Notes: a model not told the origin generated them from the sequence alone. Positions 36,358-64,000 are shown, counted from the stretch's first letter. The stretch is 64,000 bases of DNA from Candidatus Heimdallarchaeota archaeon (GCA_019058275.1 JAHLVW010000103.1:66186-130185), one strand, 5' to 3'. Numbers and translations are program-made.

Positions 36358-36479
36358 ACTCTGGCGACAATTTGGAAAGGTTTGGATTCGCATGCTGAGC
36401 GAATCTGTTTTACAATCACTATGTTTCGTTGGACTTTTCCATGCATGGGGCTGGTGACAGCAACGTGTCGTCGTTAGAC
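36358..36479 (+). other. Enlarged expansion segment ES39 (H98 region)
   Basis: ~120 nt between TTTCCC and GAAGG; closing stem TCTGGCGAC/GTCGTTAGA; internal hairpin GGATTCGC/GCGAATCT. Confidence 0.75.
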
Positions 36480-36579
36480 GAAGGTACGGATACAAGATCC
36501 GTTTGAAAGGCCTGTGGTGTACGCGTCGAGTCTTCGGGCGAGATGCTCAGCCAGCAGGTACTTAACACCTAAGCGTGTC

Positions 36580-36619
36580 ATTACCGAAATGGACTTCTAG
36601 ACCTTAAAGAAGAAGTGTG
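36580..36619 (+). promoter_or_regulatory. 23S 3' trailer with processing-stem arm (resident copy of the array repeat)
   Basis: ATTACCGAAATGGACTTCTAGACCTTAAAGAAGAAGTGTG pairs with 32266-32290. Confidence 0.85.
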
Positions 36620-36666
36620 AGTCCGAGCATCAATCATGTTTATAAAACTAGGGGGAAAAAATTCGT

Positions 36667-37407
36667 TTGACTACTGTAGAAGTTAAACAAGAACTGGGAT
36701 TAAGAAATAATCGAATTTTAGAAATCAAAATTGGATTTATCTTACTTGTTGTTTTCACTTGTTTATCTGTTATCTCTGCTATTCTATTCATCAATCATTT
36801 ATGGTCTTCGAATATTGATTTACAATATAGTGTTGTATTTGTCTTTGAACTTATCAAATTAATTCTCATTACTGTTGTTGCTTTTATGTTTTATTTAGGC
36901 TTTTCTAAAATTATCCATCTATTTCAAAAGAAATCCAAACATACAATTCTTTTCCTTAAGATAACCTTTTCAATTTATCTAGTCGTATACTTTGTTCTTT
37001 CTTTTATCTATCTTATTTATTCCTTTGATAATATTTCCAGTGAGAATGTTGCAAATCTCTTAGGTAAGGATCTTGTTTCCATGCTTGTTTTGATTATCCT
37101 TTTCCTTTTGCTTAGTATTCTACTCCAGAGAGAATTCAGAACTCTTAAATCCCGTCTTTTTCTTTCTTTCCAATCACTTCTTACTTTCTTAATCATCCCT
37201 GCCACTTTTGCTTGTATTTTTCTCTTTACATATAATGACTATGCTCGACAGATAAATGATAATTGGCACTTGTACTTTATCATTGAAACTCAAATTGGTT
37301 TGTCTTTCTTCTTCTTTTATTCCCTTGTCGTTGTTGTTTCTTCAATTATCTTTTTATTCTTCCTCAATCGTGTATCGGAACAAGTTTCTCCTTATTCGGA
37401 CTTCTAG
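36667..37407 (+). CDS. Multi-pass membrane protein (cassette 1)
   Basis: About six TM segments; the stop TAG lies inside the following repeat. Confidence 0.75.
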   Translation: MTTVEVKQELGLRNNRILEIKIGFILLVVFTCLSVISAILFINHLWSSNIDLQYSVVFVFELIKLILITVVAFMFYLGFSKIIHLFQKKSKHTILFLKITFSIYLVVYFVLSFIYLIYSFDNISSENVANLLGKDLVSMLVLIILFLLLSILLQREFRTLKSRLFLSFQSLLTFLIIPATFACIFLFTYNDYARQINDNWHLYFIIETQIGLSFFFFYSLVVVVSSIIFLFFLNRVSEQVSPYSDF

Positions 37408-37448
37408 CCCTTAAAGAGGAAGTGTGTGCAGAGATTCTACATTTTTTT
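37398..37448 (+). repeat. 23S 3'-trailer repeat
   Basis: GGACTTCTAGCCCTTAAAGAGGAAGTGTGTGCAGAGATTCTACATTTTTTT. Confidence 0.92.
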
Positions 37449-37559
37449 GTTATTTTACTTTGTTAAACTAAAATTAATTTGAGAAGAAATTTTAGTAATT
37501 TACTTTTCATTGAAAAACTAATAAACATTGAAAACGTAATAATATTGGAGAGGTTAATT

Positions 37560-38108
37560 TTGAGTAATGAAAATCAGTTTACACATAAAAGTAAACCTAC
37601 ACGAGTTATAAATAAACCATTTGTTTATTTGAATTCTGCAGCAATAACTCTTAGTTTATTTGCAATGATTTGTCTTCCACTTTTTGCTTTTGCTTATTGG
37701 GCGCATCCTCCAGGTGAAATTCATCCTGATGTAATTGTAGAATTTAAATTGCATTTTGGATCATCCTCCTGGACTTCTTTAGCATTACTATTCTTATTCC
37801 TCACATTTTTGCTTTGTTTAATAATATCAATTATCTTATTATTACATTCTATAGGAATACTCTTTCTTCGATTTCCTCCAAAGAAAAATAGCTTGTTAGG
37901 ATTCATACCATCATATACAGCTTTAACCATAACAGTGACTTTCACAATAGTTTTTGCACAATATTCTGTAATTGTACCTTGGCATCTATCTTTTTGCTTT
38001 TATTCTTCCTTAATTTGTTCTCTAGTGCTTATGCTTCTCTTTCTTCTCCAAATGACCAAAAAACCTATTTTCAAGACTTCTGCGAACATTCCCCGAATTA
38101 TTAATTAG
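37560..38108 (+). CDS. Four-TM membrane protein, paralog of 56969-57526
   Basis: PFVYLNS, LRFPPKK, LLGFIPS, PW.LSFCFYSSLICSL; TTG start after GGAGAGG. Confidence 0.8.
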   Translation: MSNENQFTHKSKPTRVINKPFVYLNSAAITLSLFAMICLPLFAFAYWAHPPGEIHPDVIVEFKLHFGSSSWTSLALLFLFLTFLLCLIISIILLLHSIGILFLRFPPKKNSLLGFIPSYTALTITVTFTIVFAQYSVIVPWHLSFCFYSSLICSLVLMLLFLLQMTKKPIFKTSANIPRIIN

Positions 38109-38130
38109 CTTAGTTTGTCTGATTATTTTC

Positions 38131-38172
38131 ACCTTAAAGAAGAAGTGTGTGCAGTGATTCTACATTTTTTTT
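38131..38172 (+). repeat. 23S 3'-trailer repeat
   Basis: ACCTTAAAGAAGAAGTGTGTGCAGTGATTCTACATTTTTTTT. Confidence 0.92.
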
Positions 38173-38174
38173 CA

Positions 38175-61876: not shown

Positions 61877-61984
61877 TCTTCAGCGAGATGCTTAGCTTGC
61901 AGGCACTCCCACCTAAGCGTGTCATTACCGAAACGGACTTCTAGACCTGAAAGAAGAAGTGTGTGCGTGAATTCTACATTTTTT
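61877..61984 (+). repeat. 23S 3'-end/trailer repeat
   Basis: TCTTCAGCGAGATGC...CACCTAAGCGTGTCATTACCGAAACGGACTTCTAGACCTGAAAGAAGAAGTGTG...TTCTACATTTTTT. Confidence 0.96.
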
Positions 61985-62014
61985 GTTTCAAGCATAGTGA
62001 TTTAAATTATTATC

Positions 62015-62428
62015 ATGATTTATAATATAACAAATCAATTGGAGATAATTATTTTGAGTGAGGATTTTACTAAATATTCAATAAGTACAGATATTGAATT
62101 TGAACCATTGGAACTACTGGATTTCCCTTCAATAATAGCCTCGTGTAAAAAAGATTGGCAAAATATGGGTATCTGTAGAGTAAATGATTGTGTTGTGAGA
62201 TTGGCTGTTGTTCAAGGAGAATTTCATTGGCATAAACATGATAAAGAAGATGAATATTTCTATGTCATTAGTGGATTACTCTTTATTGATTTAGAAGATC
62301 GGACAGTTGAATTAAAACCTCAACAAGGATTTCTAGTTCCAAAAAGAGTCAGGCATAGAACAAGAGCTCTAGAAAGAACCGGAATAATGTTGATTGAAGG
62401 ATCTACAATAAAACCAACAGGAGATTGA
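62015..62428 (+). CDS. Cupin domain protein
   Basis: GEFHWHKH..EDE.F.V, VPK.V.H, PTGD. Confidence 0.9.
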   Translation: MIYNITNQLEIIILSEDFTKYSISTDIEFEPLELLDFPSIIASCKKDWQNMGICRVNDCVVRLAVVQGEFHWHKHDKEDEYFYVISGLLFIDLEDRTVELKPQQGFLVPKRVRHRTRALERTGIMLIEGSTIKPTGD

Positions 62429-62555
62429 ATCTTTATTAGTCAGTTTAATTAATAGGTTATCTTCAATACTACTTGTTAATCATGAGAAATTAGATTTAAG
62501 AAGATTCCTTTTTCAATTAATTTTTTGATTTTCAGTTAAGGTTTATAATTAGTGT

Positions 62556-62636
62556 GTACTTACCACCTAAGCGTGTCATTACCGAACTGGACTTCTAGAC
62601 CTTAAAGAAGAAGTGTGTCAAGTTTCTACATTTTTT
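62556..62636 (+). repeat. 23S 3'-end/trailer repeat
   Basis: GTACTTACCACCTAAGCGTGTCATTACCGAACTGGACTTCTAGACCTTAAAGAAGAAGTGTG...TTCTACATTTTTT. Confidence 0.96.
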
Positions 62637-62905
62637 GTGTGCAATTAAAAAGGAATAAGGAATCCGATTAGAGAATAGCAGCATCTATTCTTGGTCGAAG
62701 AAAAAACCGAAATAAATTCCAAGAATTGGTGCAGTAATAAAAACAATAATCTCCAACACCAGAGTAGGATTTTAACACTAATCGTTATTGTCGCTAAATC
62801 TTATTTTTATCTCTAGACAAAAAATTAAAATACTTATATTTTTTTTGAAGTATATTCTACTTACTGTAATAGATTCTAACTGAAAAGGATTCTAGTGCAG
62901 ATTGG

Positions 62906-63490
62906 GTGAGTGTAATGAAAAAATATATACTATTTTTTAGCATAACTATGTTAATGGTTATACCATCCGTAGCTATTGCTATCTCAAACAATGAAACGAA
63001 TGATGAATGGGTTACCATTAAAGTGAAGAATCCTAGATTCGAAATGCCAACCACTAAATCATGGGTTGCGTGGGATTCAGGAGAGGTATCACCACCAGCT
63101 TCTGACTATTATCAACCATTTGTTAGGTACACTGTTTATATAGGATATGTAAAAGCCTATGGTGTTAAAAATGATGATACAAACCAATTCTATATTATTT
63201 ACGTCGAATTCCAAGTTAAATACGACAATTGGTATTGGAGTGGATCTAATAAGCGATATTCATGGAACATTGAACTCGAAAAAAATTCTATAGTACTGTA
63301 TTCTGATGTTACAAATGATGTTAGTTTGACAAAAGATTGGGTCGAACATGACAGTACATGGCAAGAATACTTTCCATACAGTTCTTACTGGTACTACTTA
63401 AAAGGACACCTGGCTATACAAAAATACCAATCAGGCTTATGGGTTACAAAAGCATGTGCAACATCCACAGCATCATTCAAAGTAAACTAA
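62906..63490 (+). CDS. Secreted hypothetical protein
   Basis: Signal peptide; Trp/Tyr-rich. Confidence 0.65.
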   Translation: MSVMKKYILFFSITMLMVIPSVAIAISNNETNDEWVTIKVKNPRFEMPTTKSWVAWDSGEVSPPASDYYQPFVRYTVYIGYVKAYGVKNDDTNQFYIIYVEFQVKYDNWYWSGSNKRYSWNIELEKNSIVLYSDVTNDVSLTKDWVEHDSTWQEYFPYSSYWYYLKGHLAIQKYQSGLWVTKACATSTASFKVN

Positions 63491-63501
63491 AACAAATAGG
63501 A

Positions 63502-63537
63502 GATTAATATCACCAAATGGTGATATTAATCATTTTT
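63502..63537 (+). terminator. Perfect hairpin plus T-tract between convergent genes
   Basis: GATTAATATCACCAAATGGTGATATTAATC-ATTTTT. Confidence 0.65.
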
Positions 63538-63621
63538 CTGTAATAAATTCTTGAGTCAATCACAAATGTATTGACTCATCTTAACACTTTAGTTAAATAT
63601 TAAATAAATTTTTCTCAGAAA

Positions 63622-64000
63622 TTAAATGATTTTAGCTAATCCGTTTCTTTTTCTTTTTCCATCTTCTAACTCAATTACTCTAAAATTATCTTCGATTAGT
63701 GAGAAATCATGAGTTGCAATTATTATTGTTATACCTTTGTTAGTACATAATTGCTTCAATTGGTCTATTGTTTTTTTCGCTAATTCTGAATCTAAATTAG
63801 CAGTTGGTTCGTCTAGAACAAGTATTGGTGGATGATGATAGTTAGCCATAGCTAGACTAGCTCTTTGTAATTCCCCACCAGATAAATTTAATGGAAAAGC
63901 TCTTCGTTTATGAAAGATATTGAAGTTATTTAGTAGTTCCTTTTTATCTTTCTTAGAGACTTTTGTTTGACTAGTCTTGTAAATATCTTTAATGCTAAGG
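63622..64000 (-). CDS. ABC transporter ATP-binding protein (partial)
   Basis: LSGGELQR, LVLDEPTANLD, IATHD. Confidence 0.9.
   Translation of the reverse strand, partial: LSIKDIYKTSQTKVSKKDKKELLNNFNIFHKRRAFPLNLSGGELQRASLAMANYHHPPILVLDEPTANLDSELAKKTIDQLKQLCTNKGITIIIATHDFSLIEDNFRVIELEDGKRKRNGLAKII

Follow-up and report, generated by a model that had tools for sequence, protein, structure and literature searches.

The textbook sites of gene capture are tRNA and tmRNA genes and the integron attI site; to our knowledge, rRNA gene ends have not been recognized as such sites. Casposons encode a Cas1 protein (casposase) and a family B polymerase, end in terminal inverted repeats, and produce a fixed target duplication of 14–15 bp. 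CRISPR arrays are marked by short fixed-length repeats, 30–40 nt spacers, and adjacent cas genes, and IMEX/pdif modules are bounded by dif-like sites recognized by the host Xer recombinase. Integrons have a gene for an IntI-type tyrosine recombinase next to the first cassette site, attC sites (imperfect palindromes folding into single-strand hairpins) 3′ of each cassette, and cassettes that mostly lack promoters and share the orientation of a common promoter. They have been described in archaea as well (Ghaly et al., 2022; PMC9668308). Prochlorococcus tycheposon islands form by tandem accretion at the 3′ ends of tRNA and tmRNA genes (bioRxiv 10.1101/2020.12.28.424599). In SAR11, the hypervariable region HVR2 separates 23S from 5S, and its authors infer that rRNA genes there undergo homologous recombination (PMC2217521). 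Here we analyzed a 64,000-nt stretch of Candidatus Heimdallarchaeota archaeon (GCA_019058275.1, JAHLVW010000103.1:66186-130185; referred to as the window), in which accessory genes behind the 23S gene are separated by partial copies of the 23S 3′ end. The locus is best read as an accretion array at the 23S tail that resembles an integron but has no integrase. It is probably a large, fast-turning cassette array, in which small units were inserted again and again where the pre-23S processing stem ends. In the literature, no account of cassette arrays at a 23S tail was found.

The array is headed by the single full 23S copy of the whole genome assembly. The features of this head are the following:

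32256..32290, + strand: leader strand of the pre-23S processing stem (sequence reading and RNAcofold)
32303..36584, + strand: archaeal LSU rRNA (23S), head of the array (Rfam LSU_rRNA_archaea, 2340 bits)
36470..36640, + strand: resident tail, with the last ~115 nt of 23S, the 3′ stem strand, and module A
36594-36619, + strand: core of the resident tail
36620-36635, + strand: trailer module A of the resident tail

The repeat joins the 23S 3′ end to the 3′ strand of the pre-23S stem, and in most cases a trailer module of type A or B comes next. Most copies extend 15–75 nt into the conserved module A or B, plus a T-run, and the sharp 3′ limit of the copies is partly an artefact of the resident copy used as query. 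Tail length is continuous, from 15 to ~170 nt, mostly 40–100 nt, with few tails above 110 nt. A continuous length of this kind is not predicted by one site-specific enzyme with a fixed identity block. Leader positions 32266-32276 pair with the last 11 nt of the core and positions 32285-32290 with its TCTAGA motif, while positions 32256-32262 are able to pair with module B. RNAcofold of the leader against the resident and displaced tails gave −40 to −52 kcal/mol and RNAalifold of 108 copies returned no consensus fold; the pairing partner of the repeat is the rRNA leader rather than the repeat itself. Although the stem is bulged on both strands, no fit to the canonical 3-4-3 bulge-helix-bulge was seen by eye. 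Module B occurs in one orientation only and no inverted copy of it was found. The core is the best-conserved part of the orphan copies, these having been collected with a core profile.

An earlier note on this DNA had listed 12 clear and two degenerate same-orientation copies behind the 23S gene. All of them are real and all lie on the + strand, as shown by a BLASTN search of the window with the 23S end, and with the degenerate copies near 44376 and 61047 recognized by eye. The chance expectation for core matches is zero. The same note saw no repeat in the 32 kb upstream, and indeed none is present in window positions 1-32300. The tails and the units between them are arranged as follows (right-hand coordinates of the BLASTN tails are the ends of the matches):

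36620..44359: cassettes 1–5 (ORFs and Pfam)
37398..37426, + strand: orphan tail of 29 nt, then module B (BLASTN)
38131..38149, + strand: orphan tail of 19 nt, core only, then module B (BLASTN)
40795..40819, + strand: orphan tail of 25 nt (BLASTN)
42322..42369, + strand: orphan tail of 48 nt, then module B (BLASTN)
44360..44393, + strand: degenerate tail with a long module B (weak BLASTN match and eye)
44394..52726: 8.3-kb unit without detectable internal repeat (ORFs and Pfam)
52727..52843, + strand: orphan tail of 117 nt with a decayed core (BLASTN)
52844..64000: nine more cassettes (ORFs and Pfam)
53819..53898, + strand: orphan tail of 80 nt, then module B (BLASTN)
56263..56278, + strand: minimal tail of 16 nt, then a long module B (BLASTN)
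56885..56899, + strand: minimal tail of 15 nt (BLASTN)
57546..57644, + strand: orphan tail of 99 nt, then an A-like module (BLASTN)
58469..58617, + strand: longest orphan tail, 150 nt (BLASTN)
61047..61090, + strand: degenerate tail with an A-like module (eye)
61883..61963, + strand: orphan tail of 82 nt, then module B (BLASTN)
62556..62617, + strand: orphan tail of 62 nt, which moves with the cupin cassette on its left (BLASTN)

Cassettes 1–5 carry two unknown membrane-like ORFs, a minus-strand RNase III-like gene with two unknowns, a minus-strand beta-lactamase-family gene, and a 595-aa unknown. The 8.3-kb unit encodes an RNase H-like/PolB-exo-like gene and a 946-aa Schlafen AlbA_2 protein with TPR. 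The nine remaining cassettes contain zinc-ribbon proteins, an FG-GAP/TSP3 surface protein, small unknowns, a TumE toxin with a small partner gene, a methyltransferase fragment with a RING-like protein, a cupin, and, at the contig end, an ABC ATPase fragment. Units are small (median 1.5 kb, range 0.25–10 kb) and hold mostly 1–2 intact genes. Gene orientation is weakly biased, with 221 co-oriented ORFs vs. 146 opposite ones in 168 cassettes.

The array that the note placed at 36470-64000 is real, but it does not stop at position 64000, which is the contig end, and goes on elsewhere: five more contigs (C35, C38, C75, C80, and C99) are filled with the same repeat, on one strand per contig. A genome-wide profile search yielded 64 significant copies, all of them in co-oriented arrays on six contigs, and no credible copy outside arrays; thus, the copies are confined and not scattered. 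A three-copy mini-array in the opposite orientation lies 9–11 kb before the window start, and 81 of the 84 sequences holding more than one copy have them on a single strand. In the assembly the array amounts to >100 kb with at least 64 joints. At the 16S gene end of the same genome there is a smaller array of the same kind. The assembly is a MAG (92.8% complete, 6.8% contamination) in which C99 repeats the C98 end in variant form, at 92% identity, so that the six array contigs may mix two strains and need not be one locus. The window stretch is present in four DNA runs, all from one study, and no RNA run is listed. Logan contigs of these runs break at the repeats, with short joint sides that fit other array copies, and no circular or excised form was found in the assembled contigs, which break at the repeats.

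Multi-copy arrays were detected in all 10 sister species searched, and in other genera the match was limited to the 23S body. Independent assemblies from several studies also hold several copies per contig. Cassette content and order differ between species downstream of 23S, while the upstream side is syntenic with a sister species. Downstream, only single cassettes recur, elsewhere, at 67–94% identity. The distal flanks have no synteny between species and, because of this, no conserved far boundary is definable. Re-use of cassettes is seen for the cupin cassette, which stands in different contexts on C98 and C99, for an SDR pair in different contexts on C38 and in the C98 mini-array, and for a DUF433/DUF5615 toxin–antitoxin cassette present three times in one sister genome. 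When contexts were compared, homology had 259 right-hand ends, of which 52 were no more than 5 nt from the 3′ edge of the core and another 32 fell in the 30 nt that follow; the left ends of shared blocks were not sharp. The 23S part, the stem end, and the trailer module each have several alleles, almost all combinations of which occur, and this free reassortment points to exchange inside or at the core. Orphan tails hold alleles resident in other species, e.g., a compensated hairpin (the hairpin allele of the 58469..58617 tail is the resident allele of another species in the genus), and some have stem-end types that the resident copy of their host lacks. One 23S-part allele common in orphan tails was matched by no resident 23S end when 83 genomes of the class were searched, an absence that proves little since MAGs often lack rRNA genes. 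There was no clean filled-vs-empty pair among the array loci compared, where the only clean indel was an intron in 23S. One bin of another family, which may be contaminated, holds 23 tail copies. No viral contig carries the 23S-tail site; the single viral match, a 22-mer within a coding region, was due to chance and had no 23S homology.

The genes upstream of 23S are metabolic and no IntI-type gene lies beside the first cassette site. The earlier note proposed a search for a recombinase or reverse transcriptase (RT) accompanying the arrays. The genome does encode six Xer-like tyrosine recombinases and two serine recombinases elsewhere, but none lies in the arrays, and no RT was detected (no PF00078 match in the genome, 92.8% complete). 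None of the eight has a relative in the array loci, and all were set aside as array-linked enzymes. Genes for tyrosine or serine recombinases, RTs, or Cas1-like proteins were found neither on array contigs nor in ~1,700 array-locus ORFs taken from genomes and metagenomes (including 75 metagenome loci), PF00589 matched no array contig, and the ~1,700 ORFs contained no integrase fragment even at phmmer E ≤ 1. Since the array encodes no recombinase, the reaction is expected to occur in trans. Canonical Cas1 (PF01867) is present in just 2 of the 10 sister genomes and so does not track the arrays. Circumstantial candidates for a trans-acting enzyme are a Cas1/casposase-fold family and one Xer-like recombinase (C55:205719-206786; conserved in 7/10 sister genomes, no close match outside the genus), both of them genus-restricted.

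Results of these comparisons suggest the following course of events. The mobile unit would be a cassette with its downstream tail: on its 3′ side each unit carries a 23S tail of variable length (~15–170 nt) ending in the stem strand, and the joint between units falls at or just past the 3′ edge of that strand. New units may enter, possibly as circles, beside the rRNA gene or at any earlier joint, which would explain why tails accumulate in one orientation. Units of mostly 1–2 genes in either orientation are swapped among positions, strains, and species, and their insertion in trans would be the work either of a dedicated enzyme or of the host's homologous recombination acting on the tails. As dozens of accessory blocks stand behind the 23S gene, each followed by a spare tail, the rRNA gene end appears to be a gene-capture site, comparable to integron or tRNA sites in other organisms. 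The landing pad proposed in the earlier note thus holds as an insertion site, in view of the confined co-oriented copies, the arrays in 10 sister species, the species-specific content, and the re-used cassettes. Its second part, that an incoming copy restores the 23S gene, is doubtful; nor is the site unique, as the 16S end has an array as well. Because homology does not extend past the 3′ edge of the stem strand, and because a tail moves with its left-hand cassette, the resident tail may never be replaced.

Whether a dedicated enzyme is needed at all may be questioned. Homologous recombination by the host would suffice if tail × tail exchange released circles that re-enter any tail (Campbell type), in the same cell or after transfer, with long tails lost faster than short ones. 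This accommodates the continuous tail lengths, the mosaic tails (one toxin–antitoxin cassette has different tail alleles among its copies), the absence of a recombinase in cis, and the array at the 16S end, and it has a precedent in SAR11 HVR2 (PMC2217521). Yet, many tails are just 15–30 nt long and 80–90% alike, a poor substrate for a RadA-type reaction. Block ends cluster at one point, the core's 3′ edge, and free reassortment of alleles ~35 nt apart suggests a hot spot, not even crossing-over. Moreover, arrays are found in one genus, although all archaea have rRNA genes and homologous recombination. We regard this explanation as possible but rather doubtful.

It is unlikely that a Cas1-fold, genus-specific integrase inserts the units in trans, similarly to casposon or CRISPR-spacer integration. 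One cut would always fall on the stem strand's 3′ edge, a second would be made upstream, and each insertion would duplicate tail and core; the 23S end would act as leader and repeat, and gene-sized DNA as spacers. Members of the family in question are 620–1,300 aa long, with an N-terminal wHTH, Cys clusters, and a Cas1-like domain at the C terminus; this genome has 14 matches. The family occurs in 9 of the 10 sister genomes and in none of 72 genomes from 17 other genera of the class, but this co-occurrence comes from one lineage and counts as one event, and the family is absent from the possibly contaminated bin with 23 tail copies. Cas1 was recognized by fold search only: the top 50 PDB fold matches of the AlphaFold model (mean pLDDT 86.8) are all Cas1 or casposase (E down to 1.4e-6), while a PDB sequence search gave no match. 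In the family alignment His461, Asp474, and Glu477 are invariant, with spacing near that of the Cas1 active site. The shortest tails (15–19 nt) are near the casposon duplication length; however, no terminal inverted repeats were seen, the trailer modules past the core at most joints are not predicted by simple target duplication at the core edge, and cassettes recurring in different contexts would need excision too. The 23S array loci neither contain nor adjoin a member of this family, and no Cas1-like ORF was found in them or by Pfam scans of the window cassettes. One family gene is located just upstream of a tRNA-Met (C29), the 3′ half of which is repeated on another contig; this is the sole full tRNA, and there are no partial tRNA or rRNA copies, within 25 kb of Cas1-like genes. 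A wider version, in which Cas1-fold paralogues each recognize a different stable-RNA gene end (23S, 16S, several tRNAs) and insert gene-sized DNA with target duplication, is to be judged just as unlikely.

Decay of large integrative elements (proviruses, plasmids, or tycheposon-like islands), once integrase-bearing and 23S-targeting, with integrases since deleted, is very improbable. Tandem accretion, partial tRNA copies, and fragmented integrases are indeed known from Prochlorococcus islands (bioRxiv 10.1101/2020.12.28.424599) and this genome has its six Xer-like recombinases, but against this stand the array ORFs free of integrase fragments, the small units of mostly intact genes, and a site seen on no viral contig. 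Finally, that the repeats are mainly functional RNA signals (stem strand and T-run terminator), shielding genes against read-through from rRNA and propagated by gene conversion, agrees with core variation of the kind a leader–trailer duplex tolerates, with T-runs after most copies, and with core conservation (in copies found with a core profile), but is hardly credible, as it leaves unexplained the interspecies unit differences, the mature 23S in tails, and the cassettes recurring with their tails.

On the preferred reading of an accretion array, an Asgard genus has its only 23S gene at the head of an array comparable in scale to a Vibrio super-integron, with toxin–antitoxin, defence-like, and surface-protein genes and no integrase seen. 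If the units truly move, this would be a major gene-flow route in Heimdall-group archaea, with a new enzyme behind it. Orphan tails keep 23S-end alleles and are thus a record of interspecies exchange. At the same time, 23S-tail arrays break assemblies and confuse binning, e.g., the other-family bin with 23 copies.

Compared with known systems, the array differs from pdif modules in that its joints all point one way, and from CRISPR arrays in that its 'spacers' are gene blocks of 0.25–10 kb and its repeats vary in length. With casposons and CRISPR adaptation it shares apparent insertion at a conserved gene 3′ end with target duplication, serial insertion beside a leader, and the presence in these genomes of a genus-restricted Cas1-fold family, whose link to the arrays is phyletic only; its units, though, have no Cas1 or PolB, no terminal inverted repeat was seen in them, and the duplications are variable, up to 170 nt. 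SAR11 HVR2 is likewise a hypervariable accessory region directly behind the sole 23S, with rRNA genes proposed as recombination anchors, but it is one replaceable block between two rRNA genes, and internal orphan 23S tails or cassettes are not reported there. In accretion at tRNA and tmRNA ends, too, the 3′ end of a stable-RNA gene is the target, one-way partial gene ends lie between inserts, and newer inserts displace older ones outward to give a hypervariable island. Unlike there, where each element or its remnant encodes an integrase, the 23S array has neither integrase nor remnant, targets the 23S tail and processing stem, and has units ~10 times smaller and dozens of joints. Integrons, both Vibrio-type super-integrons and archaeal ones (PMC9668308), differ by the adjacent IntI and the attC hairpins that the 23S array lacks, its repeat being a copy of an rRNA gene end; since its cassette genes face either way, it also has no single Pc-driven layout. 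In common with integrons, it is a long one-way array of small, mostly 1–2-gene cassettes without their own recombinase, in which toxin–antitoxin and defence-type cargo is common and content varies among close species.

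Rfam annotation of the window revealed one archaeal 23S rRNA gene (32303-36584), and this is the only full 23S copy in the Candidatus Heimdallarchaeota MAG (4.1 Mb, 118 contigs). When the last 500 nt of the gene were compared with the window by BLASTN, every one of the downstream repeats listed in an earlier note was recovered, all on the + strand, and the two copies described there as degenerate proved to be genuine, though decayed. The 26-nt core of the repeat (resident copy at 36594-36619) had no match across 100 shuffles. The 23S gene itself is interrupted by an 848-bp insertion (34339-35186) encoding a LAGLIDADG homing endonuclease (ORF 34532-35089, + strand). 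Several sister species lack this insertion in their 23S; in one other species an insert of 881 bp occupies the same position. The insertion probably represents a mobile rRNA intron. Elsewhere in the window, an aldehyde:ferredoxin oxidoreductase (26163-27794) is split into two neighbouring ORFs (280 and 225 aa) and a sulfotransferase (29572-30590) is likewise split; these may represent frameshifts, recoding or pseudogenes.

As the window occupies the final 64 kb of contig C98, the array continues past the end of the assembled sequence. A profile of the tail copies (displaced copies of the 23S 3′ end) gave 64 significant matches genome-wide, 12 of them in the window. The others were located on contigs C35, C38, C75, C80 and C99, where each contig has them on one strand only, or belong to a small inverted array on C98:

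C98:54105-57030, minus strand: inverted mini-array with three tail copies (profile matches 55169-57030), 9-11 kb ahead of the window start

All 64 copies lie in arrays, and the genome-wide search for repeats outside them, suggested in the earlier note, yielded none that was credible; the sole other match (C55, E=0.61) is weak and apparently coding sequence. Besides an SDR gene and small membrane proteins, the inverted mini-array carries a paralogue of the window's cassette gene at 37479-38108, and it shows 81% identity to part of the C38 array. Because contig ends have repeats and flanks in common, the array contigs probably belong to a single array of >100 kb. As C99 is a variant of the C98 end with 92% identity, the bin mixes at least two strains.

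A tail copy consists of the mature 23S 3′ end, of variable length, followed by a well-conserved core of 22-26 nt. The last 11 nt of the core, GAAGAAGTGTG, are complementary to the 23S leader (32266-32276), the core TCTAGA pairs with leader positions 32285-32290, and co-folding of leader and tail gave a long processing stem, as expected. The core thus represents the 3′ strand of the pre-23S processing stem. Beyond the core, either of two short modules follows in most copies: A, the type found at the resident 23S gene, or B, which carries TTCTACA and can pair with TGTAGAA at 32256-32262. Some copies contain both modules, and a T-run follows the trailer module. In two sister species a long B-type module (~165 nt) is present at the resident 23S gene and also at many joints there. 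The sharp 3′ limit first ascribed to the repeats was partly due to the query used, since most copies run into module A or B, but the 3′ edge of the core is a real breakpoint. The distance from the start of 23S homology to the core end, taken as tail length, varies continuously from about 15 to 170 nt; the modes are 40-60 nt and 80-100 nt, and tails above 110 nt are few.

Intervals between copies (n=168) had a median of 1.5 kb and quartiles of 0.86-2.65 kb. The gene blocks they delimit, referred to as cassettes, mostly contain one or two ORFs, oriented with the repeats in 221 cases vs. 146 opposite. Within the window the cargo comprises an RNase III-like protein, a beta-lactamase family member, an RNase H-like exonuclease, a Schlafen AlbA_2-TPR protein, an FG-GAP surface protein, a TumE toxin with its partner gene, a methyltransferase fragment, a RING-like protein, a cupin and many unknowns. 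The cupin lies at 62015-62428. Families encountered repeatedly at array loci comprise components of toxin-antitoxin systems and large surface proteins. Comparison of cassette content and order, proposed in the earlier note for strains and made here between species, showed synteny with a sister species over the 10 kb 5′ of 23S, whereas downstream nothing was collinear. There, only individual cassettes recur, with 67-94% identity and at other positions, and no synteny was found past the last repeat. Re-used units include the following:

C98 and C99: cupin cassette with its right-hand tail; neighbours differ and homology ends exactly at the core edge
C38 and inverted C98 mini-array: two-cassette block with the SDR gene; homology ends at the core edge
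One sister genome (three copies), a second sister genome (one copy) and the genome under study (one copy): DUF433/DUF5615 toxin-antitoxin cassette

Of 259 internal right ends of homology blocks over all loci, 52 lay no more than 5 nt from the core edge and another 32 in the next 30 nt; left-hand ends gave no comparable peak. Nearly every combination of 23S-part, stem-end and trailer-module alleles occurs. The right-end peak and the reassorted alleles indicate that exchange takes place inside or at the core and that each tail forms a unit with the cassette to its left. At 58469, the 150-nt tail has a compensated hairpin allele which is the resident one in another species, and in a sister species with the resident stem end GCGAG, orphan tails of GTGTG type outnumber those of GCGAG type. 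Orphan tails are more than decayed host copies. Contig depth in the source run differed between neighbouring cassettes (~5-6x vs. 12x; window 53805-56048 vs. 44001-53427), which hints that some cassettes occur in only part of the population, per-contig depth being a weak measure.

Array-bearing organisms are Candidatus Heimdallarchaeota MAGs from several studies. Each of the ten other species of the genus had several tail copies (as many as 21 or more were scored), and in other genera matches were limited to the 23S body. The core was found at 75 metagenome loci, many of them multi-copy. Arrays in sister species and at these 75 loci exclude a chimeric assembly of different 23S flanks, the artefact named in the earlier note. 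One bin of another family (G044) contains 23 tail copies on its contigs C8, C40, C69, C88 and C89, with up to 93% identity to those studied here, and has neither candidate enzyme family (Xer-like or Cas1-fold) described below. As none of 24 sister bins of its genus has tail copies, G044 is probably contaminated with mis-binned array contigs, a case of such arrays confusing binning.

On the array contigs no tyrosine recombinase, serine recombinase or RT was detected, and a threshold as permissive as E≤1 revealed none among ~1,700 ORFs from the full set of array loci; the genes 5′ of 23S are metabolic. No enzyme is encoded in cis. The recombinase or RT that the earlier note proposed to look for was missing from the array ORFs; two genus-restricted candidates were encoded elsewhere in the genome. 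The first is an Xer-like recombinase of 355 aa, encoded at C55:205719-206786, with orthologues (64-70%) in six sister genomes and a 93%-identical fragment of 58 aa in a seventh; close relatives in other genera were not found. The second is a Cas1-fold protein family (620-1,300 aa) with 14 matches in the genome, present in 9 of 10 sister genomes and absent from all 72 genomes representing 17 other genera:

C48:25004-26860: Cas1-fold family member, wHTH/Cys-rich; paralogues on C91, C29, C16, C106, C93, C89, C11, C50 and C78

The family's structure model (pLDDT 86.8) had Cas1 or casposase as every one of its top 50 PDB matches. Three residues (His461, Asp474, Glu477) do not vary across the family, and some 75 residues upstream of them there is a conserved motif containing Glu. 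Members share modules with genes of wHTH, LAGLIDADG-HTH and NERD type and frequently lie on small contigs; for several members these contigs may be episomes. One member adjoins a tRNA-Met, the 3′ half of which is repeated elsewhere. Neither Xer-like nor Cas1-fold genes lie near any 23S array. As a single lineage underlies both correlations, they are leads rather than findings.

We consider it likely that mobile cassettes have accreted at the 23S tail to form the array. The units may be moved by a site-specific enzyme acting in trans, consistent with the clustering of breakpoints at the core edge, the many tails of only 15-30 nt, the free reassortment of alleles across ~35 nt and the confinement of arrays to one genus. 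They may also be moved by host homologous recombination, an alternative favoured by the unbroken range of tail lengths and by the mosaicism of the tails. It is unlikely that the array derives from decayed large elements or that the tail copies have a purely RNA-level role.

Accretion of cassettes is not peculiar to 23S. The 16S gene on C115 (1-400), ending at the contig start, joins the start of C98, where a second, smaller array (within C98:1-12170) has copies of the 16S 3′ end and trailer at 7292 and 12068. Since the 16S gene also heads an array, the capture site of the system would be a stable-RNA gene end. We found no paper on 23S-tail arrays. Among the closest known systems, SAR11 HVR2 (PMC2217521) also lies directly behind 23S but has no internal tails. 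Sedentary integrons follow a similar logic, yet none of their parts was found in the 23S-tail array. Tandem islands at tRNA genes, for instance tycheposon islands (bioRxiv 10.1101/2020.12.28.424599), share the target logic; those islands, however, carry integrases.
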